From positions 672,001 to 736,000 of the forward strand of contig JBGAHS010000001.1 of the NCBI GenBank assembly GCA_044226015.1: DNA of 64,000 bases, given 5' to 3'. The notes below the pieces were generated by a model. That model was not told the DNA's origin and made no database searches. It saw only the letters and a list, made by a program, of their open reading frames with translations. Both the position numbers and the translations under genes were made by a program. Of the stretch, positions 22,765 through 39,571 are shown piece by piece (positions within the stretch are counted from its first letter, which is position 1; each line of letters starts with the position of its first letter). The DNA is from Candidatus Obscuribacteraceae bacterium (GTDB lineage Bacteria > Cyanobacteriota > Vampirovibrionia > Obscuribacterales > Obscuribacteraceae).

Positions 22765-23679
22765 TTACTTGCCTTCGGTTGAAGGACCCTTCATCTTTTC
22801 GTTGAGCGCTTCCTTGAGCAGCTCGTTCTGCTTCAACAAAGCCTTTAAGTGCTCATTGGCAATGGCTAATTCCGCCTGCAACTCAGCTACGGTTTGCTCA
22901 TAGGTCACGCCAGTTACAGGGTCTCTTCCTGGCATCTTAGGCAGGAGGACGTAGCCAAGTTGAACGGCCTTCAAAGCTGCAGCCGTTCTTGTTGGAACTT
23001 TCAATTTAGCAAGAATACACTCGATATGCTTTTCAACTGTTCTCAGTTTCATATCTAATTCTTCGGCGATCTCTTTATTACGCAAGTCAAGACGAATCAA
23101 GACCTCGATTTCTCGATCGGTCAGATTCGTGTTGGGCATCGCGTTGGCTGGCGTTTGCTTCACCAATTGAGTGATTTTGGGGTCACAATAAGGCAAGCCC
23201 CTCGTTACCTGATCAATCGCGTCAAAAAGAGTTCTGGGACCAGAACTCTTCAAGCAGAATCCGCGTACACCAGCCCTTATCAGCTGATTGTGGTACTTGG
23301 TCGCGTGATATGAGTCGGTCAGAATTAGTAAATTAGTTTGTGGCATTTCAGTCGTAATGCGACGAGCCACTTCGACCCCATTCAGGATATCTAAATCGAC
23401 ATCCAGTATTACGAATTGTGGGTTGAGTCGTCTGATAATTTCGGTCGCAGCCATACCGTCGGAAGCTTCACCGATAATTTCAAGAACTTCGGAGACAACT
23501 CTTTTCAACCCGAAACGGATGAGCTCATGACGCTCGCAGACTACTGTCTTGGGGCGGAAACTTGAACCACGAGAAGGTAAACCGGATTCCAACGAAAACT
23601 CCAATTTTTTGTACTCTACAAGTAGAACTTCTGAAATGATCTCAGCTTGACAAAGTTTTGTCCGCGCTAATTCTATCAA
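22765..23679 (-). CDS. NarL/FixJ-family response regulator (receiver plus LuxR HTH) with coiled-coil tail
   Basis: IIGEASDG, VILDVDL..LNGVE, ILT, FCLKSS. HTH LTDREIEVL...NKEIAEEL...TVEKHIECILAKL. Start uncertain. Confidence 0.9.
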   Translation of the reverse strand: MIELARTKLCQAEIISEVLLVEYKKLEFSLESGLPSRGSSFRPKTVVCERHELIRFGLKRVVSEVLEIIGEASDGMAATEIIRRLNPQFVILDVDLDILNGVEVARRITTEMPQTNLLILTDSYHATKYHNQLIRAGVRGFCLKSSGPRTLFDAIDQVTRGLPYCDPKITQLVKQTPANAMPNTNLTDREIEVLIRLDLRNKEIAEELDMKLRTVEKHIECILAKLKVPTRTAAALKAVQLGYVLLPKMPGRDPVTGVTYEQTVAELQAELAIANEHLKALLKQNELLKEALNEKMKGPSTEGK

Positions 23680-25528: not shown

Positions 25529-28500
25529 CTAAACTGGGCGCAGCTTGTTTGAGATTGGTCTCTTAACAAGTCTTCCGATTTTGCTTGAAAGGTCTTTGAC
25601 CACTCCAGTGATTCCGGCCTTTATAGGCATGTCCTGGTGGTTTGCGCGTGTCGGAACGCCAGCTGCAACAGGCATGTCTTGATGGTTGTTGCGAGCAGGA
25701 ATTCCTACTGCCAGCGGAATATCTTGCTGATTTGCTCTCAACGGAGCACCGGCTGCGATAGGCATATCTTGTTGATTTGCGCGTACTCTTGCCGCTGCAG
25801 AACTTGGGATGTCCTGCTGATTGTTGCGTATGCGTGATGCGTTTGCAACTGGCATGTCTTGATGATTTCCGAAAAGACCGCCGATGATGAGTTCTGGAAG
25901 TCTCATCTTTTCAGGCTTATGAGCTTTCGCAGGCTTTTGTGTGGATGAATTTGTGCTCGACTGTTCGGCTTCTGTGCCACCGCTGACGGTGCCCAAATAG
26001 CTGTCGAGTAATTCGCGATCAATGGTTGTTTCACTCACAACTGTCACGAGATTGTCTATGTTGAAATCTCTTTGGAGAGTGTTGAGGAAAGTGGTGATTT
26101 CTTCAGCTTCTGGAAGCTCGAGAACCTGTCTGCTCTTAAGTTCAACGATTCTCTTGCCGTCAATATTCTCTTCACGAATGTTGGCGCCGTTCAGGTCTGC
26201 AATCAGCCAGGCTATTGCCTGGTTTTGATAAAGCGATTCTGCAATTGATTGCAGTGTTTCGCCTTCGCTGACCATGTGTGTGCGGCGATGAAGAATTTTG
26301 TGAGCATCGAGATTTGGAGCAACGGTTCCGATTTGTTCGCCGGTTTCCGGGTCAACAAGCATGAGTTCATTTCTTACTTTTGCTGCGCCGCCCATGGCTA
26401 TAACTGCCGCTATGGTGAGTTCGACACCCGTTAAATATCTCTTGTTTTTGTCAGCGCCGAATTCTCTGATGCGGCGAATGGGGAGTCCGTTTTCATCGAC
26501 GCCATCTTCATATTCAAGTTGAGCTAACTCAGCATTGCTGATACCAACAACTCCTTGTGTGTCTACCTTGTTTGTCAGAACTTGACCATGGATGTCGACC
26601 GGGCGTCCCTTTGCGTCAACCAGAACCCCATCGACCTTTTCGATATTCATTTTGCCAGCAGGCAATTCATTGCTTTTGTGATTAGCCAGCAAGGTGTCAG
26701 CTAGATGCTTGCCACCATTTACGGTGTCAAGGTTGAACTGCGTTTTGCCATTGACCAACTCAGAGGAAACTATGCCTTTTTCTGTGAGCGTTGCCATGCT
26801 GGCATCTTTTCTGGCGATAATGGTGCCATCTTCTGCTCTAACAATAACTTTGCCAGCTTCAATATTGAGCTGTCCGTTTAGATTGCCACGCTCTTGTAGT
26901 CCCGCTGCTGTGACTGCTGCCGTTTTTTCTCCAACTAGCAAAACGCGATCTGAAAGTCCTGCTACTGATGTTGAGGTGACTGCCAGTTTGTCAGCCATGA
27001 TTGATGTGGCTAGCGGCTTTTCCGAGAGTGAAAAGGCGGTTCTTTCCGTGTTGCTTATGCCTAGCATGGCAGCAATATTCTTTTCCACAGCGATCAAGTT
27101 AACCTTGTCTGTAGCAGCCAAGGTGTTAAGTGCAATTGCTTTGCCAGTTGTGGGGTCAATTTCGCTTCCCGTTGAAATTCTGGCAAACGATGGCAATGTG
27201 AGTTCTCTGCCTGCGCCGATGACGTTTTGCACTGATTTGTCAGCGCTTGCAACGTTTTGCAATGGAATACTCAGATCTACTGGTCTGGCTCGGTGGTCAT
27301 CTGTGTCAAGCGCCACTTTTCCTGCCTCGCTGCGAACAAGCTGCGACGGCTCAACGGAAGCAACCCGCGCAGGTTCCTGCGCTGATTGTGCTTTGCCTAA
27401 ATCTATGGTGTTAAACGATGTTCGTTCGACGTTGTTGGAAGCTGCAATTGTTCTGTCACTCTGTCGCACGTCTGCGAAATCTCGCACGTCACGGCTTGAA
27501 CCAGCCAGTGTGCTTGATTCTCTTTCTCGCCCAGCACTTTGTTCTCTGGAAAAATCGCGGCTAGAGGAAGCTTGCTCGGTTCTTGAAGCCGAATTCAGCG
27601 CTGCGTTATTCTCGGTTCTAGCTGCCAGGTCTACTCTGCCACCGGCAGTGGTGTCGCGGAAGCCGAGATCTCTTGTTGCCACATCTTTGCCTGGGTCGGC
27701 AGTTTTGAACTGCGGCAACTCCACCTTAGCTGCTTGGTCAGAGCCAACTTGCGGCCTGAAATCGGCAACCGCTGGTCTTCCGTCAGGTGCTTTCGTGCTG
27801 AAATCAGCGAGGTGCGGACCTTCCGAATTCTTTGAGTCAGAGCTCTTGAAATCTGCTCTAATCTCAGGTGCTTTCAGTTCTGATGATTTGAAATCGACTC
27901 TGGCAGGTTCGTTTGATTTAGCCGCAAAGTCAACTCGTCCTGTCGGAAGTGAGCCATTTTGCTTGGCTTCATCAATTGAACACGCGCCCGGTTTTCCATT
28001 GTAGCCATTCAGTTGATCGAGAAGTCCGGTCGATTTCTCTGTCTGGTTGTTAGAGCGCATGTCTGCAGCTGCAACATTTTTTTGTACTTCGCTTGTTCTC
28101 AATCCCAAGTCAGTACGAATGGCTGGGTCGAGTTTCGATGAGTCAATTTTGAAAGATGGTTCCACCCGCAATCCGTCAAAACGATCTTGCAGTTTCTGCC
28201 CGTCTTCTGGTTTTACTTCTGTATTGCGCGAGCCGATCTGAAAGCCATTTTGTCTGGCTTCTTCAACGGTGCACGGTCCTACTTTTGAATTGCCACTTTG
28301 AAGTTGTTCAATGAGTGACGGTCCATTTGAACCGGTCGAACGTTCTACTTTGGATGACTCGTCTTTTGGAACGTTCAACGCATCGCTTTTAGATGCTCTG
28401 TTGATTTGATCGTTGGTTGAAACTTGAACTGCTGCATCAATCTTGAAACCATTTTGTTTGGCTTCTTCTATGGTGCAAGGACCAACTTTGTTGTTTCCCT

Positions 28501-29221
28501 GGCTCAGTTGCTCGATCAATGATGGTGTTTCTGATTTGCGTACTTGCTGCTCAGCTGCGGCAGTTTGACTAGCTGTTTTCATGCTTTCGATGTTGAAACC
28601 ATTTTGTTTGGCTTCTTCCACGGTGCAAGCGCCGCGTTTTACTTCGCAATTGTTCAACTGGTCGAGCAGTGAAGGAGAGGTGTTGGTTTGTGTTTGCGTC
28701 ACCTGCACATCGCTTCTGCCGGCTGCGATCAAGCTGCGCTCGTCGACAGGAGCCTTGGCTGGCGTTTCTGCTTTCGCCATCGCCATTGCTCCTGCTGAAG
28801 CTGTCGCTGTTACTTCTATTGTTCCAGATTTACCTGGAACTTCTGTATTTTTGTTTGAGTCAGTCTTAACCGCGTTGAACAGCGCTTGTTGTCCTTCTGA
28901 AGGACGTGTACCCAATCTATCAGCGAAGGTCGGAATCGTGGTGGTCACTTCGCCACTGTTGGAAAGCCTGTGCTCATCGGAATTGTGAATGAATGCTGAG
29001 CTGACACCATTTTCAGTGCCTGGACGCTTGAGTCCTGCATTCTTTAATTCGCTAGTGATTAGATCGTCTTTTGTCCCGCCAGTCAGCCGATTGAGAACAG
29101 AGGACGCGAACGCTTCAGCGGTCATTCTCAAACTGGCTTCTGTGCCGACAGCCTTATCTGTGCTCTGAGGTCTTTCGCCCTCAGTAGCTTCAGTTTTTGC
29201 TTTGTGTTTGCTGTCGTCCAT
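25529..29221 (-). CDS. Large repetitive protein with a LysM-like domain
   Basis: 1230 aa. RTHMVSEGETLQSIAESLY...WLIADLN...VLELP is LysM-like. Two internal repeat families. Confidence 0.75.
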   Translation of the reverse strand: MDDSKHKAKTEATEGERPQSTDKAVGTEASLRMTAEAFASSVLNRLTGGTKDDLITSELKNAGLKRPGTENGVSSAFIHNSDEHRLSNSGEVTTTIPTFADRLGTRPSEGQQALFNAVKTDSNKNTEVPGKSGTIEVTATASAGAMAMAKAETPAKAPVDERSLIAAGRSDVQVTQTQTNTSPSLLDQLNNCEVKRGACTVEEAKQNGFNIESMKTASQTAAAEQQVRKSETPSLIEQLSQGNNKVGPCTIEEAKQNGFKIDAAVQVSTNDQINRASKSDALNVPKDESSKVERSTGSNGPSLIEQLQSGNSKVGPCTVEEARQNGFQIGSRNTEVKPEDGQKLQDRFDGLRVEPSFKIDSSKLDPAIRTDLGLRTSEVQKNVAAADMRSNNQTEKSTGLLDQLNGYNGKPGACSIDEAKQNGSLPTGRVDFAAKSNEPARVDFKSSELKAPEIRADFKSSDSKNSEGPHLADFSTKAPDGRPAVADFRPQVGSDQAAKVELPQFKTADPGKDVATRDLGFRDTTAGGRVDLAARTENNAALNSASRTEQASSSRDFSREQSAGRERESSTLAGSSRDVRDFADVRQSDRTIAASNNVERTSFNTIDLGKAQSAQEPARVASVEPSQLVRSEAGKVALDTDDHRARPVDLSIPLQNVASADKSVQNVIGAGRELTLPSFARISTGSEIDPTTGKAIALNTLAATDKVNLIAVEKNIAAMLGISNTERTAFSLSEKPLATSIMADKLAVTSTSVAGLSDRVLLVGEKTAAVTAAGLQERGNLNGQLNIEAGKVIVRAEDGTIIARKDASMATLTEKGIVSSELVNGKTQFNLDTVNGGKHLADTLLANHKSNELPAGKMNIEKVDGVLVDAKGRPVDIHGQVLTNKVDTQGVVGISNAELAQLEYEDGVDENGLPIRRIREFGADKNKRYLTGVELTIAAVIAMGGAAKVRNELMLVDPETGEQIGTVAPNLDAHKILHRRTHMVSEGETLQSIAESLYQNQAIAWLIADLNGANIREENIDGKRIVELKSRQVLELPEAEEITTFLNTLQRDFNIDNLVTVVSETTIDRELLDSYLGTVSGGTEAEQSSTNSSTQKPAKAHKPEKMRLPELIIGGLFGNHQDMPVANASRIRNNQQDIPSSAAARVRANQQDMPIAAGAPLRANQQDIPLAVGIPARNNHQDMPVAAGVPTRANHQDMPIKAGITGVVKDLSSKIGRLVKRPISNKLRPV
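25617..25867 (-). repeat. About six copies of a 15-aa coding repeat N[HQ]QD[MI]P...
   Basis: NHQDMPVANASRIRN / NQQDIPSSAAARVRA / NQQDMPIAAGAPLRA / NQQDIPLAVGIPARN / NHQDMPVAAGVPTRA / NHQDMPIKAG. Confidence 0.9.
27945..28680 (-). repeat. Four dispersed copies of a ~30-aa Cys-containing motif
   Basis: SLLDQLNNCEVKRGACTVEEAKQNGF, SLIEQLSQGNNKVGPCTIEEAKQNGF, SLIEQLQSGNSKVGPCTVEEARQNGF, GLLDQLNGYNGKPGACSIDEAKQNGS. Confidence 0.9.
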
Positions 29222-30156: not shown

Positions 30157-30208
30157 TCAAGCCCTGTTAGCAGAATTTAGCTTTTTCATGGGAAAATTAC
30201 GAAACCGA

Positions 30209-30246
30209 TGGGACAAACCCCAATTGTCCCACGCGTGTATATAACT
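30209..30246 (+). promoter_or_regulatory. 8-7-8 palindrome next to a -10-like TATAAC, upstream of the TPR/rpoB-paralog operon
   Basis: TGGGACAA-N7-TTGTCCCA at 30209-30231, followed by TATATAACT. Confidence 0.35.
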
Positions 30247-30291
30247 TAAGCTGTGCTCATTCTTCCGGATTTCTCTCGTCCGAGTTGGCAA

Positions 30292-32343
30292 ATGAGCAAA
30301 ATGAATCGCCGTTTCTTAATAGTTACAAGTTGTCTAATCTCCCTCGTCGCAGCAAGTGCGTCAAACTCAGCTAACGCAACAAAGCTGAATGCGCGTCCAC
30401 TGCCTTCAGAGCGAGAATTGAAAGATTTCGAAAATAGCCAGACTAGCGCGCCGACAGTGAGCCGCTTCTCTCGTCGCATGGACTATCGCGACGAAGAAAA
30501 GGCGAAGCAAGAAGCCGCTGAGCAGGCAAAGAAAGAAGCAGTCGAAAAGGCTGCTATGGCTGAAAAAGAGCACTTCGCTGCCGGCAAGAAAGCCCAGCAA
30601 GCTGCTTTGGAAGCTAACAATAACGGAGTCGCGATGGGTAAGGCCGGTCGTTGGACCGAGGCTATCCAGGCTCATGAGAAGGCTGTTCAGCTTGACCCAC
30701 AGAACAAGCAATACAGAATCAATCTGTCAGCTTGTCGCACAACATTCGGTCAAGCACGTTTGAACGCGAAAGATTTTGATGCAGCTTCTGGACTTTTCCG
30801 CAAAGCTCTTGCAGCGGCACCAGACAATGGTTTAGCGACCAAGCTTCTGAACGATACCTTGAAGAAGCAAGGCAAAGACCCGAGCTCAGTTGAAGAAAGA
30901 GTTTCTATAGGTGACCAGCTCATGGCTGTTCGTGATGTAGAAGCTGCACTTGTTGAATACCAAACAGCGCTTCAACTTGAATCATCCGCTCGCACTTTCA
31001 CAAAAATGGGTGATGTTGCTCTTCACTGTGGTCAACTTTCAACAGCAGCTAACTGGTATCGTCAAGCTCTGAACAAAGATGCTAACTTCAGCTCAGCGCA
31101 CAGACAATTGGGCATGCTTCAACTGCAAGCTCAAGACAACACTGGTGCCGCAGCTTCACTTCGCAAGGCAGTTATTCTAGATTCAAAAGACAACGTTGCA
31201 GGTCAAGCTCTCGTTGAAATCTGGCGCCGTCAAGTCGCGACAAATCCACTTCTTGCTGAAAATCATCTTGGTCTAGCAGGCGCACTGCAGTTGACCGGCG
31301 ACTTCCATGGTGCTGAAGATGAATACAACAAGCTCGCAACTCTAGAGCCAGGAAATCCTGGATTGCAAGCTGGACGTGCATCACTTCAACGCGCTAGACA
31401 GCATGCAGCTGCCGAAAAGCACAGAGCGGCTGCCGAAACTTTGTTCAACCAGGGACTGAAGCGTGAAGCTCTCGCTGAAATTGGTCAAGCAGTCATGATT
31501 GAACCAAAGAATGCTCGTTATCAATTCCTTTTGGGTGAATGCCTCGAAGCAAATGGTGACCTCCGTGGTGCTCACCAGGCTTACATGACTTGTGTACTCA
31601 TCGACCCAGAAAAGAACCAGGAAGCTGCTTACCGCATGAAGGAAATGCAGCGTGGTTCTGGAAACAACATGCCTGTGCAACAAGCTCGCATGCCACAAGC
31701 ACCGATGCAAATGCAACAAGCTCCAATGCAGATGCAGCAAGCTCCAGTGCAAATGCAACAAGCACCGATGCAAATGCAACAAGCTCCAATGCAAATGCAA
31801 CAAGCTCAGGCTCCACAAGTTCAAAAGAATATGTTTGAAGGTGGCAATGGCATCGCCAATGTAGCTAACACTCAAATGGGTTTTAGCACTCACGGTGATG
31901 AATCGCGTATGCCAGCTCCGCAACAGCTTGCAGCTGTTCCGCAAATGCAGCAGGCAGCTCCAGTTCAAGCTCCAGTACAAGCTCCAGTTCAAGCAGCAGC
32001 GCAAGCACCTATCGGAAGTCAGATTGACCCAGCGCTTGCTCAAAAGTTGAACGAGCTCGAAGCAGCCAGAGACCATGAATCAGCAGTTGGCTTGCTGCGT
32101 CAAGTTCTCACTCAGAACCTGCAGAATCCAGATATTCACCACAAACTGGCTGTGAATCTGTTGGCTGCAGGCAACGTGACAGAAGCAATCTCTGAGTTCC
32201 GAATTGCATCGGCACTTCGCCCAGGCAACAAGGAGTTCGCAATCGACCTTGCAAGAGCAATGGAAATACACAAACGTTCCCAGGAAAGCGCGAATGAAGA
32301 GCAAGTTCCAGCAGCATCAGGAAAAGAGGTAGCCGTTAAATGA
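30292..32343 (+). CDS. Secreted multi-TPR protein with a Gln/Pro/Met-rich linker
   Basis: Signal peptide (MNRRFLIV...ANA) and many TPR units (EAIQAHEKAVQLDP, AHRQLGML, ARYQFLLGECLE). Its stop codon overlaps the rpoB-like start (ATGA). Confidence 0.88.
   Translation: MSKMNRRFLIVTSCLISLVAASASNSANATKLNARPLPSERELKDFENSQTSAPTVSRFSRRMDYRDEEKAKQEAAEQAKKEAVEKAAMAEKEHFAAGKKAQQAALEANNNGVAMGKAGRWTEAIQAHEKAVQLDPQNKQYRINLSACRTTFGQARLNAKDFDAASGLFRKALAAAPDNGLATKLLNDTLKKQGKDPSSVEERVSIGDQLMAVRDVEAALVEYQTALQLESSARTFTKMGDVALHCGQLSTAANWYRQALNKDANFSSAHRQLGMLQLQAQDNTGAAASLRKAVILDSKDNVAGQALVEIWRRQVATNPLLAENHLGLAGALQLTGDFHGAEDEYNKLATLEPGNPGLQAGRASLQRARQHAAAEKHRAAAETLFNQGLKREALAEIGQAVMIEPKNARYQFLLGECLEANGDLRGAHQAYMTCVLIDPEKNQEAAYRMKEMQRGSGNNMPVQQARMPQAPMQMQQAPMQMQQAPVQMQQAPMQMQQAPMQMQQAQAPQVQKNMFEGGNGIANVANTQMGFSTHGDESRMPAPQQLAAVPQMQQAAPVQAPVQAPVQAAAQAPIGSQIDPALAQKLNELEAARDHESAVGLLRQVLTQNLQNPDIHHKLAVNLLAAGNVTEAISEFRIASALRPGNKEFAIDLARAMEIHKRSQESANEEQVPAASGKEVAVK
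31696..31800 (+). repeat. Five 21-bp tandem coding repeats (QAPMQMQ)
   Basis: CAAGC[AT]CC[AG][AG]TGCA[AG]ATGCA[AG] x5. Confidence 0.92.
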
Positions 32344-35300
32344 GCTTCTATTTCCAACCCCCAGATCTAGCTGAATTCCCGAGACGTTCGTACAGAAAGT
32401 TTCTCGAAGAAACAATTGGCAAGCTTTTCACTGAAATTTCGCCAATTGGCAGTGAGTTCAACAACCGTTTCGAAATCTCTTTCATCGGCACCGATGGAAA
32501 GGCTCACTGGAAGTTCGAAGACTACGGCATCGACTCCGGCTACCCAACATCGGCTGAACATGCTCGCAAATCTAACATGACGCATGCTCGCAGATTGCTC
32601 ATGGACATCTGGCTTCGCGATACTCAGACTGGCGTACTGAGAAAGACCACCGCTTACATGGGTGACGTTCCAGTAATTACCGACCGCGGAACCTTCGTCA
32701 TCAACGGTTCTGAGCGTGTCGTCCTTGGACAGTTGGTTCGTGCTCCTGGCGTATACTTCTCCAACCCAGACAATCAAATCTACAAAGCTTTGATTCTTGG
32801 TGAACTTGGCGCTCCAATTTCTTTTGAACTCGACCTCGAGACCGGAACAGGCAAAACCAGCCGCGCTAAGTGCCGCATCAAGTTGCCAAAGCGTGGATGG
32901 GTTTCAGCTGTAACCGTTTTGACAGCAATGGGCGTTGATTGGGATACATTGCAAAAGCGCATCTTCCCTTTGCTCAACAAGCATCGCATTGAGTACAAAC
33001 AACTCAACGCTTCCGAAGCCCTCTCAACCCTGGGCAGAGCCTGGAAGCCAGACGGTGCCGGCGGCGCAGGTGCTGGTTCTTCAGCACTTCAAGAAATCAC
33101 AGACCGTCGTCGTTATTCACTCGGTGATCTCGGTCGTCGTCGCTTCAACCGCAAACTAGACTCTGAAATTCAATCACTTCAGCTCACCAAAGAAGACATT
33201 CTTCTTGTTGTTGAATACTTGCTCAACCTGCCACTCGGCAATGGTACGACCGACAACATCGACAGCCTTGAAAATCGTCACCTTCGTGGAATTGGCGATG
33301 TTCTGACCAAAGCTGTTCGTCCAGCGCTTGCGCAGATGGTTCGTTCAGTTCGCACAAGACTCGAACTGCATGAAGATGATGAAGAAATCGGCAGCCCACA
33401 GGACTTTCTTGATGTTCGTCCTTTCGCAAATGCAATCAACAAGTTCTTCTCGGGCAATCCGTTGGTTCAATATCTCGACCAGCAAAACCCACTTTCTGAA
33501 CTTTCACATCGCCGCCGTATCACATCTTTCGGACCTGGCGGTATTGACCCGAACGCTGCACCGACAGAGATGCGCGACGTGCATCCAAGTCAGATTGGTC
33601 GCGTTTGCCTCGTAGAATCTCCTGAAGGTAAGAACTGCGGTATGGTGTCTTATATGGCAACATTCTGCCGCATCGATAACGACGGTTTCATGACCGTTCC
33701 TTACCGCCGTGTTGTTGATGGTGTAATGACAGATGCTGTCGATTACCTCACACCAGCTGACGACAAAAAATACACACTTGCACCACCCGATACCAAAGTT
33801 GATGGCATTCGCATTTGTGGACCAACAGTTTATGCTCGCCGTGGAGAAAGCTTCTATAACGTCGAACCGAGAGAAGTCGACTATATAGGAATTGCTCCAC
33901 AAGGTTTCCTCTCCGTCGGTTCCGGATTGATTCCTTTCCTCGAGCATGATGATGCCAACCGCGCTTTGATGGGCGGCGGCATGATGCGTCAAACTCTGCC
34001 TTTAATCAAGCCAGAGCGTCCACGCGTCGGAACCGGCATGGAAAAGATTGTTGCTAAGTCTTCTGGTCACTCAATCACCGCAAGACGCGCTGGCACAATC
34101 ACCAAGGTTACTGGCAAAGAAATTAGAGTGACACAGGCGTCTGGCGAATCGCGCACTTATCCTCTAATCCGCTATGACAGAACCAACCAGAACACCATTC
34201 TCGACCAGCGTCCAGCTGTGAAAGTTGGTGACAAAGTCGAAGCCGGACAAATCATCGCTGATGGACCTGGCATCGAAAAAGGCGAACTGGCACTCGGACG
34301 CAATCTCCTCGTAGCTTTCATTCCATGGAATGGACAGAACTATGAAGATGCTATCGTTGTCCGCCGTGGTTTGGTTCGTGACCACAAGCTAAGCCACATC
34401 GAAATCGAGAAGCACACAATCGGCGTTCACCAGACATTGCGTGGACCAGAAATCTTGACTCCAGAGCTTCCGAATATTTCTTCGAAAGATCTTGAGCATC
34501 TCGACGAGCGTGGCATCGCAAAGGTCGGCGCTTATGTTGAGCCTGGCGACATCCTGGTCTCTAAGCTTTCACCAAAAGAAGCTAAAGCAATGAGCGCTGA
34601 AGAAGAATTGCTTCAAGCAATCTTCGGAAAAGTCGCAGAAGAAATGGCTGACACCAGCTTGCGTGTTCCACACGGCTCTGGCGGTCGCGTCATCGATGTG
34701 CGCATCTTCACCCCGGAAACAACTCCAGAGTTGAAAGCTGGATTGATTTGCGAAATCGAAGTGCTCATCGCAAGACTCTGCCCGGTAGAAGTTGGCGATA
34801 AGCTCGCTGGACGCCACGGAAACAAGGGTATCGTTTCCATCATCGTTCCAGACGAAGACATGCCATATTTGCCAGACGGCACCCCTGTTGATATTTGCTT
34901 GAACCCACTGGGCGTTCCAAGCCGTATGAACATCGGACAGGTACTTGATACTCAGCTCGGTCTCTACTCGCAAATTCTCAACCGCTACTATCGCATTCAT
35001 CAATTCGATGAATCGTTGAGCCCAGATGCTTCGTTCAAACTAGTCAACGATGCACTTGCTGATGCTCGCAAAGTTCCAGGTTATGAGTGGATTGGCGAAA
35101 ACGGCAAAACAACACTTTATGACGGCAAGACTGGCGAGCCATTTGATCGTCCAGTTCTGGTCGGTCGCCAGTACATGCTGAAACTGAATCAATTGGTTCT
35201 GCACAAAATTAATGCTCGCTGCGGACTGGGTGGTCCATACGCTGCTGTAACCCAGCAACCCGTTGGTGGTAAAGCGAATCACGGCGGTCAGCGCATGGGT

Positions 35301-36179
35301 GAAATGGAAGTTTGGGCAATTCAAGCATACGGTGCTTCCCATATCCTTCACGAAATGATGACTGTAAAATCTGATGATGTAGAGGGACGTCACCAGATTT
35401 ATTCAGACATGGTACAAGGCAAAGAACTTACATCCGGAAAGAGAACCGCTGCGTTCGACGGACTTTGCTGCGAAATTCGTGGACTGGGTCTGGAAGTCAC
35501 TCTGGGCAAAGTTCTCGATGTCGAAGAGCCAATCGAGTCCAAAGCCTGCACCAAGAAGGGCAATGTCAAAACGAAGTCACTGGAAGAAGAATATCAAGTC
35601 AGCCATGTCGATCAACTCGAAGAAGACGGCAAGAAGATGGTCGAAATTCCAGCTGGCGATTATGAACCATTGATTCGTCCAACCGCTGAACCAGTTCTTG
35701 TTTCACTCGGAATGGGCAGAAATGCAAACAAAGTTCAATTTGATATGTCGGAAGAACCACTTATCGACGACATCGATGAAAACACTGAGTTGCAGCTGAT
35801 CGATGATTTCATCAGTGCCGAAACCGACGACATTATCGCTGCGCTCGGCAACGACAAGCCTGTTCAACCAGAAGCACCATGTTTGCGTAACATTGGACTC
35901 GATGATGTCGAGGACGAAGCCGAAGACATCTTCAGTATCAGTTCAATTATCAGAGCTGAAGCTGGCGACACTTCGATTCAAGGAACCGATGCTGCAAGAG
36001 CCGCAGTGCGTGCCGCTCAAAAGAGTCTCTGGGGTGATGATAAAAAAGATGAGCTGAGCTTTCCATCGTTCAGCGAACTCTCTTCACTTTCGCAACAACT
36101 TTCACAGCTCCTCGTTGGCGAACCCGAAAACGAGTTCAAGCCAGCAAATAATGAGCTGACGATTCTCACCAAGGAGTAA
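32340..36179 (+). CDS. rpoB: DNA-directed RNA polymerase beta subunit, divergent orphan paralog with acidic C-terminal extension
   Basis: GTFVINGSERV, DQQNPLSELSHRRR, RDVHPS, ESPEG, IPFLEHDDANRALMG, GELALGRN, NYEDAI, GDKLAGRHGNKG, NPLGVPSRMNIGQ, GGQRMGEMEVWA, TVKSDD. AGAGGT RBS. No adjacent rpoC or rplL. Confidence 0.95.
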   Translation: MSFYFQPPDLAEFPRRSYRKFLEETIGKLFTEISPIGSEFNNRFEISFIGTDGKAHWKFEDYGIDSGYPTSAEHARKSNMTHARRLLMDIWLRDTQTGVLRKTTAYMGDVPVITDRGTFVINGSERVVLGQLVRAPGVYFSNPDNQIYKALILGELGAPISFELDLETGTGKTSRAKCRIKLPKRGWVSAVTVLTAMGVDWDTLQKRIFPLLNKHRIEYKQLNASEALSTLGRAWKPDGAGGAGAGSSALQEITDRRRYSLGDLGRRRFNRKLDSEIQSLQLTKEDILLVVEYLLNLPLGNGTTDNIDSLENRHLRGIGDVLTKAVRPALAQMVRSVRTRLELHEDDEEIGSPQDFLDVRPFANAINKFFSGNPLVQYLDQQNPLSELSHRRRITSFGPGGIDPNAAPTEMRDVHPSQIGRVCLVESPEGKNCGMVSYMATFCRIDNDGFMTVPYRRVVDGVMTDAVDYLTPADDKKYTLAPPDTKVDGIRICGPTVYARRGESFYNVEPREVDYIGIAPQGFLSVGSGLIPFLEHDDANRALMGGGMMRQTLPLIKPERPRVGTGMEKIVAKSSGHSITARRAGTITKVTGKEIRVTQASGESRTYPLIRYDRTNQNTILDQRPAVKVGDKVEAGQIIADGPGIEKGELALGRNLLVAFIPWNGQNYEDAIVVRRGLVRDHKLSHIEIEKHTIGVHQTLRGPEILTPELPNISSKDLEHLDERGIAKVGAYVEPGDILVSKLSPKEAKAMSAEEELLQAIFGKVAEEMADTSLRVPHGSGGRVIDVRIFTPETTPELKAGLICEIEVLIARLCPVEVGDKLAGRHGNKGIVSIIVPDEDMPYLPDGTPVDICLNPLGVPSRMNIGQVLDTQLGLYSQILNRYYRIHQFDESLSPDASFKLVNDALADARKVPGYEWIGENGKTTLYDGKTGEPFDRPVLVGRQYMLKLNQLVLHKINARCGLGGPYAAVTQQPVGGKANHGGQRMGEMEVWAIQAYGASHILHEMMTVKSDDVEGRHQIYSDMVQGKELTSGKRTAAFDGLCCEIRGLGLEVTLGKVLDVEEPIESKACTKKGNVKTKSLEEEYQVSHVDQLEEDGKKMVEIPAGDYEPLIRPTAEPVLVSLGMGRNANKVQFDMSEEPLIDDIDENTELQLIDDFISAETDDIIAALGNDKPVQPEAPCLRNIGLDDVEDEAEDIFSISSIIRAEAGDTSIQGTDAARAAVRAAQKSLWGDDKKDELSFPSFSELSSLSQQLSQLLVGEPENEFKPANNELTILTKE

Positions 36180-36185
36180 CTTAGA

Positions 36186-37901
36186 ATGGCAGATGCACCA
36201 AAAAAGAAAGGAAGGTTTGTGAGACTGACGAGTCTCACGATGCTGACTGCATCCGCATTAATGACTGTGGCACCTGCAGCACTCGCTGACTACGCCGAAT
36301 GTTTAGGTGGACCGCGGCAAACAGATACTCTGAGAAATCCATTAGTTCCGGGCGCACCAAGCGGTTTGCCCGGACAAGCCGTTACAGGGTCCAGACCGCC
36401 AGCTGTCGGTGATGGTTCATGTCCTGCTCCCTTGATTCAAGGTGATGGCAACGGTCCAACCCGTGTCACAAGCGGTTATGCAGATCGCGGACATGGCAGT
36501 ATTTTCCAGGCCGGTGGCAGCCAGGGCGCTAAGGTTCCTTATGGCTACATCGGTGGTGCGGGTCGCTATCCGACATCTGCTGGTCGTCAGCAAGGTATGT
36601 ACGATTACGGTCAGGGTGCGCGTTACGGCAAAAATACTTATGAAGCCGGCGCAAGCAATCTTGGTCAAACAACATATGAGTCCGGAATGGAATTGTATGG
36701 ACAACGCAAGTATGACGCTGGTCAAGGCATGTATGGACAGACCATTTACCAGGGCAATGGTGGTGGCTATGGTCAACGCACCTACGAAATGGGCGGACAA
36801 ATAGCTGGTCAATCTACCTATGAAAGCGGCATGGGAAATTATGGTAACCGCAGCTATGACTACGGTCAGGGACTTGCTGGACAGGGCACCTACCAGAGTG
36901 GAGCCGGCAATTATGGTCAAAGAACTTATGAAAACGGATCTGAGTTAAGCGGCTCGTCTATGTATGACAATGGCGCTGGAAATGGCGGCATGCGCAAATA
37001 CGATAATGGCGGCGGCAACACTGGCTCGCGTATGTTCGACAATGGTCAGGGCAATGGCGGCACTCAGTATTATTCTGGTAAAGGTCGCGGCGGTCAGATG
37101 ACTTACGACAATGGCCAGGGTAATGGCGGAAAAAAGCTTGGTGATGGTGGCGCCGGAAATGGTGGCACCCGTAGCAATGATTTTGGAACAGAGGCCAACG
37201 GCAGCAGAATCAACAATGATGGTGGCACGCGCACAGGTGCGCAGGGTGTCTACAATGCTGGTGGACCACGTTCAAATGCAGACCAGTCGAATGATAATGT
37301 ATTTGCCCATGACAGACAGGGCAACAACTATGATTTCCAGGGTCCGCTTCCAACAGTTCGTACATTCTGTCGTTATTTAGTTATTCTCGGTGTTGTTGCC
37401 GCCTGCGTTTGGGTAGGCATGGCAGCCATCGGCGTTGTGATGGGTAATCGCAATGGAGTTGAAAGAGTTGTCGGAGCGATTGCAGGTCTTCTGCTATTGC
37501 TTGCAGGCTACACCATCTGGAAGATTGTCCAGATGAATACGTTCAAGGCCAATACCACTGGTGTCTGGTCAATGACTCGCGGAATGGCTCAGCCCAAACC
37601 ACAAAATGGACCAGTTAATCCTCCGCAGAACTTCGCTCCTCCAGAAGACCCAGGTCAGACTCCAGCAGCACCTGGACCAGGAGCCAACCAACAAGAGCAA
37701 CGTCAACGTACTGGTCCTCAAAACTACCGTCCAACGCAGGGTCAGACACCACGTGAAATTCAAGGTCCCTACAACTATCGTCCACAAGGTGGCTACACCG
37801 GTCACCCACAAGGTCCAAACAGAGTCGGCAGCTATGACATTCCTCCTGCCAATATCGTGCCTGAACCGCCCGAAATGCCTGTAATCAACCCGAATAGATA
37901 G
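36186..37901 (+). CDS. Exported Gly/Tyr-repeat protein with a TrbC/VirB2-pilin-like two-TM hairpin and Pro/Gln-rich tail
   Basis: AAGGAG RBS, starts 6 bp after the rpoB-like stop. Signal peptide ending ALA. 12-aa repeats. TM pair YLVILGVVAACVWVGMAAIGVVMG-NRNGVERV-VGAIAGLLLLLAGYTIW. Confidence 0.75.
   Translation: MADAPKKKGRFVRLTSLTMLTASALMTVAPAALADYAECLGGPRQTDTLRNPLVPGAPSGLPGQAVTGSRPPAVGDGSCPAPLIQGDGNGPTRVTSGYADRGHGSIFQAGGSQGAKVPYGYIGGAGRYPTSAGRQQGMYDYGQGARYGKNTYEAGASNLGQTTYESGMELYGQRKYDAGQGMYGQTIYQGNGGGYGQRTYEMGGQIAGQSTYESGMGNYGNRSYDYGQGLAGQGTYQSGAGNYGQRTYENGSELSGSSMYDNGAGNGGMRKYDNGGGNTGSRMFDNGQGNGGTQYYSGKGRGGQMTYDNGQGNGGKKLGDGGAGNGGTRSNDFGTEANGSRINNDGGTRTGAQGVYNAGGPRSNADQSNDNVFAHDRQGNNYDFQGPLPTVRTFCRYLVILGVVAACVWVGMAAIGVVMGNRNGVERVVGAIAGLLLLLAGYTIWKIVQMNTFKANTTGVWSMTRGMAQPKPQNGPVNPPQNFAPPEDPGQTPAAPGPGANQQEQRQRTGPQNYRPTQGQTPREIQGPYNYRPQGGYTGHPQGPNRVGSYDIPPANIVPEPPEMPVINPNR
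36600..37265 (+). repeat. About 18 degenerate ~12-aa coding repeats Y[DE]xGxGxxGxxx
   Basis: For example YEAGASNLGQTT, YESGMELYGQRK, YDAGQGMYGQTI, YESGMGNYGNRS, YQSGAGNYGQRT, YDNGAGNGGMRK. Confidence 0.88.
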
Positions 37902-37987
37902 AGATTAGAGCTAGTTCAGGAAAGAAAAAATCAGTATTAGAGACGGTTTTCACGCTATTCGAGAAAGAAAATAAACGGTACAACAAT

Positions 37988-38722
37988 ATGGTAATCGAGA
38001 TACAAGCAGGAAAAATGGCAATGAGCATGGCACTTGCCGCCGTGATACTCTCCGCCATTGCTCCAGCGGGCGCTACGCAACCTCGTAGTGAAGTCCGTGA
38101 GGATCGATTCGACAGAAGCACACCGCCACCCGCGCCAACGCGGGCACCACTGACGGGAAATGTATACTCTGTTCGCACCAATCCGCAGCCTGTTCTCAAC
38201 GTGCCTCATCCTGAGGTCTCAAAGCAAAGCACACCACAAGAATGGTTCAATGCGCTGGACACATATGTGGGCTTTTACAGACCAACCGACAAGGATAAGT
38301 ACGTCATAAATACCCCATTTAACGATGAGGTAGAGAAGGTAAATGCCTTCTGCAAAACTGTCGCTGGCGTTGCGCATAAATATCGAGCATTGGCCAAAAA
38401 CCTAAAAGCTATGCCGATTTCGACAAATCTTCCTGACCAACAAAAGGTCAAAGAATATAGAGATTTGCTCGCTAATTGGTACGACGACTCTGCGGTTGTT
38501 TATGAGGACATGATTCGTCCCAGACCAGCAGCAAAAACAAAAGAAGAACTGCAAGGCATGATTGGTTCCATCAGGGACAGATCAGAAAGCTTGAAGTCAA
38601 ATCTGGAACTTCTGCAAAAAATGGATTCAGACATCAGACTCTCTTGCCATGTAGACCCACCCAAATACGATGACATGATTCGCAAATATGCTGGCGAAGC
38701 TGGCTACGCAGGTCATCGCTAG
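37988..38722 (+). CDS. Hypothetical secreted alpha-helical protein
   Basis: Signal-like MALAAVILSAIAPAGA followed by amphipathic helices. No family recognised. Confidence 0.7.
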   Translation: MVIEIQAGKMAMSMALAAVILSAIAPAGATQPRSEVREDRFDRSTPPPAPTRAPLTGNVYSVRTNPQPVLNVPHPEVSKQSTPQEWFNALDTYVGFYRPTDKDKYVINTPFNDEVEKVNAFCKTVAGVAHKYRALAKNLKAMPISTNLPDQQKVKEYRDLLANWYDDSAVVYEDMIRPRPAAKTKEELQGMIGSIRDRSESLKSNLELLQKMDSDIRLSCHVDPPKYDDMIRKYAGEAGYAGHR

Positions 38723-38794
38723 CTCCTCCCCACTCTCTCCAATTCCCACACTTCAGGCTAATTTTTTGCCTAAAAAACAGAGGACTCCACCATC

Positions 38795-39571
38795 ATGGCC
38801 ATCCAATTAAGCGAGCGAGATATGATGATCTTCAAGTTCATTGAAGAGCACCAGGTACTTCTCGAAAAGCATATTGCCTGGTTCATTTCCTGCGATGAAA
38901 AGCCAGTCTTGATTCGCGATAGACTCAGGAAACTTTTTTACCTCGACTATCTTCTTTGTCAACGTCACGCAGGCAAATTGCCCTGGTGGACAACTCCGAC
39001 AAAGCCGCTAGTCTATATGCTCTCGCCCATGGCGCGTGGTATGGTAGCAAGTTCAGAGTGCGAGATGGACCTATCAGATACTGATGTTCAGCGCCACTTG
39101 CTTGAAGTAGCAAATTTGCGCATGATATTTTTGACAGACCAGAAAGCTGGACTCATCACCGAGTTTCACTGGACAACTGTACCGAGCGTGAGTTCACTGG
39201 CAACTATTTGTGCGACAGTTTCTTTCAACAGAAACGGCAGAGTTCATAGAGCCGCTGTGATCAACAACTTTGGCATCGCCGCAGACAGCGCGCGTGAGGC
39301 TGCAGAAAAAGCTATCGCAGATGGAAGCTCAGATATGATCTGGATAATTTCTTCTGATGAAGCTCAGCAAGAAACTCTGCAACAAGCTCTTAGCAGTTCG
39401 AATATTGCAAACAGAATTGCATTCACTACTCACCAGGAAATATACAAAGCTGGTGTTGTTAAAGCAAAATGGCAGAGTGCAAGCAAAGCTTATGCTCCCG
39501 TTATTGCCGAATCTGTCGTCGTGGCACACACCAATATGGCTTGGAATCCAAGCATGGCAACTCCAGCCTGA
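38795..39571 (+). CDS. Replication-relaxation (Replic_Relax)-like winged-helix protein; nuclease motif apparently degenerate
   Basis: LSERD..IF..I..H..L...HI, RDRLRKL...YL, P..Y.LS..A, RHLLEVANL. No PD or ExD motif seen downstream. GAGGA RBS. Confidence 0.6.
   Translation: MAIQLSERDMMIFKFIEEHQVLLEKHIAWFISCDEKPVLIRDRLRKLFYLDYLLCQRHAGKLPWWTTPTKPLVYMLSPMARGMVASSECEMDLSDTDVQRHLLEVANLRMIFLTDQKAGLITEFHWTTVPSVSSLATICATVSFNRNGRVHRAAVINNFGIAADSAREAAEKAIADGSSDMIWIISSDEAQQETLQQALSSSNIANRIAFTTHQEIYKAGVVKAKWQSASKAYAPVIAESVVVAHTNMAWNPSMATPA

Follow-up and report, generated by a model that had tools for sequence, protein, structure and literature searches.

A second, divergent RNA polymerase beta subunit in a conserved operon of Obscuribacterales with apparent ties to a VirB4/VirD4 secretion locus

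A 64,000-nucleotide stretch of the genome of a Candidatus Obscuribacteraceae bacterium (the window; positions 672,001 to 736,000, forward strand, of contig JBGAHS010000001.1, assembly GCA_044226015.1) encodes a second RNA polymerase beta subunit, here called beta-star, within a five-gene operon. The operon is real and conserved, and apparently undescribed. A literature search, with supplements and most subscription journals outside it, found no description of the paralogue or its operon and retrieved only near-identical actinomycete rpoB duplicates. Paralogy, a matching distribution and a shared promoter box support a tie between the operon and a domesticated conjugation- or secretion-type system, as an initial annotation of this DNA had proposed. 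In the reading that we favour, to which we give about an even chance, beta-star would be a programme-specific replacement beta in the host core enzyme during a secretion programme.

By its sequence, beta-star truly belongs to the RpoB family. All six Pfam beta (Rpb2) domains are present in it, it scores above the NCBIfam rpoB cut-offs (NF001616, 1068 vs 896; TIGR02013, 1034.9 vs 801.15), and its best PDB match is chain 8syi_C (E 1.6e-271). It shares 41.7% identity over 1067 aa with the rpoB product of its host, so the initial description of an orphan, divergent rpoB-like gene holds. A canonical rpoB-rpoC1-rpoC2 cluster is found on the same contig, 600 kb away. In the source genome (G000; 92% complete, 3% contamination), rpoA, rpoC1 and rpoC2 are each single: sensitive tblastn, six-frame phmmer and a DxDGD motif scan retrieved no further rpoC1 or rpoC2, and a further rpoA was not found either. 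In no locus does an rpoC lie next to beta-star, the sole rpoC1 and rpoC2 following the canonical copy. Any working beta-star enzyme must therefore use host subunits. The protein consists of a core (approximately residues 1-1060), a conserved C-terminal extension of about 90 residues (to approximately residue 1145) and a variable acidic tail, which ends in an FPS motif in 35 of 56 sequences. The core holds about 11 cysteines, against about four in canonical copies. Public records label beta-star plainly as rpoB. Nine long sigma70-family factors are encoded in G000, one of which (C8:9632-10279) has a strongly divergent region 4. In another class member (locus L048, G060:C1), the open reading frame (ORF) with the rpoC1 catalytic motif is 1834 aa long, compared with about 600 in the others, which suggests a fused rpoC1-rpoC2 in family f7.

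Whole-protein searches retrieved beta-star from 34 of 36 genomes of the same family, with identities of 69-86% (completeness is 58% and 85% for the two genomes without it), from one of three sister-family genomes and from none of 21 genomes of other orders. A class-wide search of 400 genomes with the N-terminal 487 residues (E<=1e-120) gave 88/103 in the family, 1/3 in the sister family and 0/294 elsewhere; two of the family misses hold beta-star fragments. Beta-star was not found in genomes G008, G019, G037 and G038. Two copies are present in G013 (C21/C50), a genome with 8% contamination, and at L036 (G018:C3) the gene is split into two ORFs by a frameshift or an assembly error. A sample of 81 genomes of the phylum yielded neither further beta-star proteins nor intermediates between these and ordinary betas, and there were no intermediates among the 120 matches listed of 831, where identity falls from 66% to 46%. 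A scan of GTDB species genomes with the last gene of the operon, gene 5, retrieved 90 relatives, of which 80 were kept. Their titles are mostly Obscuribacterales, Obscuribacter or Melainabacteria, including Ca. Obscuribacter phosphatis, with some other labels; the assignment of beta-star carriers to Obscuribacterales rests on these record titles.

The five-gene order is complete in 66 of the 80 loci anchored on gene 5 and cut by a contig end in the other 14, none differing. Among 37 loci anchored on beta-star, 29 are complete, counting three genes outside the ORF filter that were recovered by tblastn, and eight are truncated at the end of their contig. Some loci belong to both sets, and related genomes are not independent samples. 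In ten genome pairs, the nonsynonymous divergence (dN) of the beta-star core was 0.08-0.21, with a median 1.8 times that of the canonical copy, and synonymous divergence (dS) was near saturation. In all five genes, dN was far below dS, and purifying selection on the operon is strong. All 36 phage and 68 plasmid matches fell below 60% identity, and no gene-5 relatives were found in viral contigs. The operon is vertically inherited. These results do not support one suggestion of the initial annotation, that the gene is cargo of a mobile element. The gene is not the only rpoB of its genome, its neighbourhood is conserved in relatives and contig chimerism is excluded by the same arrangement in many independent assemblies; none of the three outcomes named in advance as fatal to that annotation occurred. 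A locus that was an artefact, a contaminant or a decaying mobile-element remnant could explain the split gene at L036 and the four genomes without a hit, but it is refuted by locus conservation, distribution and dN/dS; the canonical rpoB lies on the same contig, and we give this reading next to no credence.

In trees of beta subunits, beta-star has a very long stem (1.08 with FastTree; 3.4-4.6 under the posterior mean site frequency model, PMSF). In the tree it joined two long-branch sequences, a placement flagged as a meeting of long branches. Without those two sequences it fell into a polytomy with the betas of the phylum (22 of 67 rows used). A sister position to the rpoB of the host order itself was not rejected by the approximately unbiased test (p-AU 0.36), which does not prove it.

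Residues were compared between 31 paralogues and 21 canonical copies, in E. coli numbering. E813, D814, K1065, K1073, R1106 and R678, which we take to be the residues binding nucleoside triphosphates (NTPs) and metal, are each retained in 31/31 paralogues. Also retained are D516, H526 (31/31) and the flap-tip hydrophobics L902 and F906. By contrast, four residues invariant in all 21 canonical copies are replaced: H1237Q, W183P and N684G in 31/31 paralogues and R540P in 30/31. Six substitutions in the rifamycin pocket (S574Y, S531T, L533F, S512V, Q510P and I572V) are fixed in 31/31. The flap tip has the charge changes K900E, R903Q and E908K, fixed or nearly so, a two-residue insert precedes switch 3, and at one site, presumably the Mfd/CarD contact, IKE has become LRK. 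Over the whole protein, 41 canonical betas of the phylum were compared with 125 beta-star sequences, some of them duplicated between sources. Of 517 columns invariant among canonical copies, 265 are identical in beta-star, 121 have a different residue fixed and the remaining 131 are relaxed. By assumed domain borders, few fixed changes fall in the alpha-facing regions of the barrel (7/47 and 6/62 columns) and many in the fork/Rif region (32/97), the protrusion (16/52), the flap (20/79) and switch 3/clamp (17/69). Fixed changes are numerous in the RNA channel, in the rifamycin pocket, at the flap tip and in switch 3. We read this pattern as a preserved core for assembly and chemistry, with surfaces for nucleic acids and factors that were probably rewired once and then frozen.

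Upstream of gene 1 lie two tandem TGGGA boxes and a probable -10 hexamer (Table 1). Position 30209, where the initial annotation began the operon, falls inside this conserved promoter box. Boxes and TAAGCT hexamer were found in 29 of 33 loci, despite saturated synonymous sites. In a second, overlapping set, the box is present in 65/65 loci, the double box in 56/65 and a box with TAnnnT at 21-25 nt in 64/65; the box pattern occurred in 39 of 2000 control windows of 330 nt. Among 68 intergenic boxes genome-wide, TAnnnT starts 23 nt after the box in 12, 24 nt in six and 25 nt in three. Such a spacing of 23-25 nt is the geometry of an activator site abutting the -35 element. A generic promoter and terminator scan gave no excess over shuffles. 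One near-perfect copy of the double box and -10 (C11:510787, minus strand; L237) precedes only a 78-aa ORF.

The same box recurs at a chromosomal VirB4/VirD4 locus of G000. When the window was left out of the matrix, 61 of the genome's 4064 promoter regions scored at least 12, compared with 10-28 in five shuffles. At the secretion locus, which was picked before the scan, 5 of 12 regions reached this score, with four distinct sites (binomial p ~2e-5). The site ahead of a 241-aa gene of the locus is kept in 13 of 15 relatives and absent from two sister-family genomes. Before the first gene of the locus, the strict pattern was retrieved in 0/14 cases; the site there is a variant, TGGGA-N4-CCG, recognized by eye in 10 of 17 relatives (two cut, five without it). 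Judged from these alignments and scores, a conserved TGGGA-box promoter is common to the operon and several promoters of the secretion locus.

A NarL/LuxR-family response regulator is the likely binder of the TGGGA boxes. NreC might serve as a model for such a box; no paper on this was found in a literature search. Three other genes separate it from the operon in the window, and in many relatives the two are divergently adjacent. It was seen in 21 of 37 beta-star-anchored loci, is 78-95% conserved, and occurs in 25/27 genomes of family f1, 2/3 of family f2 and 0/15 others. In this genus, a 1230-aa protein (25529-29221, minus strand) is inserted between regulator and operon; it has no Pfam match, and its C-terminal domain has eight more matches in the genome.

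Beyond these loci, we scanned 21 proteins encoded at 20 hand-picked box-bearing places. Eight of the 21 are lytic or wall-acting. Pfam types comprise three thermolysin-type proteases, a lysozyme, an L,D-transpeptidase, a phospholipase D and a beta-amylase; the set also includes a glucosaminidase-like protein (below cut-off) and nine proteins without a Pfam match. At places such as C1:706463, C1:708115, C10:270582 and C10:479010, the box precedes enzymes, among them proteases and peptidoglycan hydrolases, that begin with a charged leader and have no signal peptide. Leader-like N-termini among box genes were not significantly enriched (odds ratio 2.3, p=0.056). A predation or contact programme is a possible meaning of this promoter class.

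The secretion locus encodes two secreted-type proteins, a 142-aa pilin-like protein, a large membrane protein, a VirB4-like ATPase, a VirD4-like coupling protein and a Replic_Relax protein. The last of these, at C10:63038 directly after virD4, is the sole Pfam-positive Replic_Relax of G000. VirB6-, VirB8- and pilin-like labels within the locus are putative, given without family matches. The 142-aa pilin-like protein has no Pfam or NCBIfam match, is nearly invariant across the order and is present in up to three copies. VirB4-like genes were retrieved (E<=1e-60) from 102/103 genomes of the family, 3/3 of the sister family and 0/294 others of the class, some of the 102 matching through a second, weaker paralogue only. 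This range nearly equals that of beta-star. A second VirB4-like gene (C1:171194-186376), split by a stop near 183874, is accompanied by a second copy of the large membrane protein, and a third copy of the latter lies at C4:238905. We found no published description of the VirB4/VirD4 locus of Obscuribacterales.

The operon comprises five co-oriented ORFs on the plus strand, for a tetratricopeptide repeat (TPR) protein, the rpoB-like protein and proteins of 571, 244 and 258 aa. The gene 1 stop and the beta-star start overlap (ATGA at 32340-32343), and gaps of 6, 86 and 72 bp precede genes 3, 4 and 5, respectively, all where the initial annotation had placed them. GC content is 0.49-0.51 across the operon and 0.47 for the whole contig, and it changes without an abrupt boundary. 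Short pieces of beta-star and of genes 3-5 are matched, with few differences, by contigs from three RNA libraries; the libraries were picked using this stretch, with shares of 0.06-0.10, DNA carry-over is possible and uncovered parts are uninformative, and we take the matches as a weak hint of transcription.

Signal peptides had been predicted on three partners of beta-star. In a crude hydropathy check (not SignalP), a hydrophobic N-terminal segment was present in 32/33 TPR, 30/30 gene-3 and 30/31 gene-4 homologues, in agreement with that prediction, and in 0/32 beta-star and 1/29 gene-5 homologues. Gene 1 is probably exported. In gene 3, hydropathy and alignment show a signal-like segment and a conserved membrane hairpin of two helices (approximately 388-452); the protein also has a Pro/Gly N-module and Gly/Tyr repeats that are genus-specific. 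Its N-module aligned with the secreted-type protein heading the VirB4/VirD4 locus (hhalign 95.9%). The hairpin had been likened to VirB2/TrbC. Signal segment and hairpin were both found; likeness to a pilin family is suggestive only. The pilin-like protein of the secretion locus is the best non-self match of the hairpin in its own genome (E 0.056), with a weak pairwise score (probability 12%, E 0.0023), and no Pfam pilin match was retrieved in 30 gene-3 members. Gene 3 is a possible minor pilin. Gene 4 was modelled by AlphaFold2 as a four-helix bundle (predicted local distance difference test, pLDDT, 81.9). No known family was found for it, with no Foldseek match at E<=0.001, a best VIA Z of 10.3, within the range common for helical bundles, and a best Atlas score of 0.80. 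Its one weak paralogue (C10:278579-279796, E 8e-5) adjoins a stand-alone LuxR-type helix-turn-helix gene near an extracytoplasmic function (ECF) sigma operon.

The initial likening of gene 5 to Replic_Relax stands at the level of profiles. Gene 5 aligned end to end with the Pfam-positive Replic_Relax family of the VirB4/VirD4 locus (hhalign 97.4%, E 9e-12, 228 columns). Its profile retrieved two typical Replic_Relax members (E 1e-5 and 2e-4), and its Atlas neighbours include Replic_Relax clusters (score 0.93-0.96). A direct match to Replic_Relax (PF13814) was obtained for only one of 29 members, at E 0.0043, under the cut-off, and Foldseek gave no match of any kind for gene 5 at E<=0.001. The nuclease motif is lost. 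In the secretion-locus family the acidic motif is D in 27/27, E in 22/27 and D in 25/27; in gene 5 the first D is kept in 17/29, and the E-x-D columns hold hydrophobic residues and Asn, with no acidic residue among the five commonest. Gene 5 is thus probably a nuclease-dead paralogue of the secretion-locus gene, and nicking of DNA is therefore unlikely. Top VIA matches of its C-domain are mostly nucleases (best Z 7.9, root-mean-square deviation 3.3, 102 aligned), and its helical N-terminal domain is near-invariant and modelled at a pLDDT of about 50. By analogy with its family, it would combine a winged-helix N-domain with a restriction-endonuclease-type fold.

Table 1. Coordinates of the operon, its promoter elements and associated features (window positions unless a contig of the source genome, G000, is given)
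Feature	Position	Strand	Basis or remark
NarL/LuxR-family response regulator	22765..23679	-	Pfam Response_reg + GerE; candidate box binder
Tandem boxes TGGGA-N4-TACG + TGGGA-N4-CCCCA, 20 bp apart	30189..30222	+	Probable activator sites
Probable -10 hexamer TAAGCT	30247..30252	+	24 nt after second box
Gene 1, TPR-repeat protein	30292..32343	+	Likely ATG 30292; ORF opens GTG 30253; Pfam TPR families
Gene 2, beta-star (second RNA polymerase beta subunit), 1279 aa	32340..36179	+	Pfam + NCBIfam
Gene 3, putative exported/membrane protein, 571 aa	36186..37901	+	Signal-like segment, N-module, repeats, membrane hairpin
Gene 4, putative exported four-helix-bundle protein, 244 aa	37988..38722	+	AlphaFold2 model
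Gene 5, predicted cytoplasmic Replic_Relax-like protein, 258 aa	38795..39571	+	Profile homology
VirB4/VirD4 locus	G000:C10:63035-90226		L161, L162

We favour a model in which an activator, probably the linked NarL-type regulator, binds the TGGGA boxes just upstream of -35 and would switch on the operon, parts of the VirB4/VirD4 locus and other genes, including those for lytic enzymes. Beta-star would then join the host's only alpha, RpoC1 and RpoC2 to form another isoform of RNA polymerase. This enzyme would still polymerize RNA but differ in how it handles promoters, nascent RNA, sigma region 4 and factors that bind beta, so that transcription would be reshaped while the secretion programme runs; it would probably be insensitive to rifamycins. 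Gene 5 would be a likely cytoplasmic DNA-binding or adaptor partner, and genes 1, 3 and 4 would be envelope parts of the same programme rather than polymerase subunits. The kept NTP- and metal-binding residues, the alpha-facing regions, the dN pattern, the precedent of the actinomycete RpoB(R) and the shared box favour such an isoform, in which we place roughly half of our confidence.

Several observations weigh against it. The activity of beta-star may be impaired or unusual, given the replacement of H1237, W183 and R540, because W183A destabilizes E. coli promoter complexes. W183 stacks on the +1 base (PMC4499132, which also reports the W183A effect) and H1237 touches the initiating substrate (PMC5737558). 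A plain alternative polymerase would not account for the fact that three of the four partners in the operon seem to be exported. Genome G038 (88% complete) has the regulator and VirB4; beta-star and gene 5 were not found in it and the operon is not beside the regulator, so beta-star may be dispensable for the programme. In its congener G039, regulator, double box and operon genes are all present. The box geometry fits ordinary sigma70 promoters, and beta-star therefore need not read them. Finally, no convincing box was found at the long sigma70 genes, with one weak site among the nine.

Alternatively, beta-star might serve the secretion machine directly, either as a dedicated polymerase on DNA handled by VirB4/VirD4, with the dead relaxase as specificity factor, or as a protein exported to take over the RNA polymerase of a target. 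Direct service of this kind is possible, though we think it rather unlikely. If true, it would be a categorically new use of a core transcription subunit, one for which we found no description. A narrower version, in which gene 5 recruits a beta-star core that, rather than transcribing genes, supplies the machine with primers or short RNAs or moves its DNA, is unlikely. It would account for the paralogy of gene 5 with the gene directly after virD4 in its own genome, for the clustering of beta-star changes along the RNA/DNA hybrid and exit path, and for the common promoter box. Nevertheless, no origin of transfer or substrate was identified, no precedent is known to us for a beta-only swap in such a role, and the operon was not found in G037 and G038, which keep VirB4 and an intact Replic_Relax paralogue.

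A different possibility is that beta-star is an inhibitor-resistant isoform, like Nocardia RpoB2, allowing transcription under rifamycin-type antibiotics met in microbial contact. The six fixed pocket substitutions point this way. S574Y is listed among E. coli rifampicin-resistance changes (PMC2872623, Table 1), and S474Y of RpoB(R) would correspond to it, provided that the 100-residue offset seen in H426N/H526N applies. However, H526 and D516 are kept, divergence spans the whole protein (121 fixed changes), far past the pocket, and the operon partners and shared promoter are left unexplained. We hold resistance as the main role to be quite doubtful and unlikely.

An effector role, in which gene 5 would be the pilot or adaptor for export of beta-star to a prey or neighbouring cell, and beta-star would enter the RNA polymerase there to redirect or block it, has a still smaller chance of being right. 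Co-regulation with the secretion locus, the lytic or wall-acting share of the hand-picked box genes, and the long, acidic, unstructured C-tail with its terminal FPS are all compatible with an effector, and the related predator Vampirovibrio has been proposed to attack by means of a type IV secretion system (T4SS; PMC4451040). Against it, beta-star evolves slowly and steadily, unlike a host-adapting effector; at 1279 aa, it would depend on two partners from another cell; members of this order are not known to be predators; and the leader-like N-termini fall short of significance. We give similarly little weight to beta-star as a non-transcribing titrator that binds alpha or RpoC1/RpoC2 into a dead core and damps transcription in a life-cycle switch. 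Such a role would suit the assembly-facing regions, which are best kept, and the replacement of several nucleic-acid contacts, but the six NTP/metal residues are invariant. Moreover, the replacement residues are themselves invariant in at least 95% of the 125 sequences, which suggests a new function over relaxed selection.

To our knowledge, bacteria are held to run on one core polymerase with varying sigma and accessory factors, the known exceptions being near-identical rpoB duplicates. If the favoured reading is true, beta-star is a core isoform sharing one beta-prime, a bacterial parallel to the specialized eukaryotic polymerases. It is also a natural experiment on the rewirable surfaces of beta. 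The order-wide secretion locus and promoter class bear on the lifestyle of Obscuribacterales. In practical terms, a beta-star labelled rpoB can mislead trees built on rpoB and estimates of how contaminated these genomes are.

Among known systems, conjugation-derived VirB4/VirD4 systems resemble that of the order in carrying VirB4- and VirD4-like ATPases with a relaxase-like gene. In Vampirovibrio chlorellavorus, of the same class, a T-type, partly plasmid-borne T4SS has been proposed to act in predation; the available part of its description mentions no polymerase subunit (PMC4451040). The VirB4 of Obscuribacterales, on the other hand, is chromosomal and near-universal in the order, with 0/294 genomes of other families positive at E<=1e-60. 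Gene 5 is like Replic_Relax proteins in its end-to-end alignment with a Pfam-positive member of the same genome; unlike them, it lacks E-x-D, has a gene for an RNA polymerase subunit rather than one for a coupling protein as its neighbour, and is inherited vertically. Multisubunit RNA polymerases of phages and other elements have a divergent beta-like protein away from rpoBC, together with their own beta-prime, whereas beta-star has no beta-prime, shows a cellular-type beta domain layout, lies on neither a phage nor a plasmid and is near-universal in one family. There is also a likeness with the actinomycete second betas, Nonomuraea RpoB(R) and Nocardia RpoB2, likewise a second rpoB beside the canonical one with no second rpoC. 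They use the shared core, their changes lie in the fork/rifamycin region, and RpoB(R) forms a stage-regulated second RNA polymerase that shifts gene expression (PMC5431353, PMC3536979, PMC10719064). The same Ser-to-Tyr site has probably changed in beta-star and RpoB(R). Five substitutions and a deletion of six residues separate RpoB(R) from its twin (PMC5431353), against the 41.7% identity between beta-star and its own, and RpoB(R) depends on H526N, where beta-star keeps H526. Unlike either actinomycete protein, beta-star combines its 121 fixed changes with a new C-terminal extension, family-wide occurrence and an operon with secretion-related genes. By analogy, beta-star may work like RpoB(R), though without the defining features of that group.

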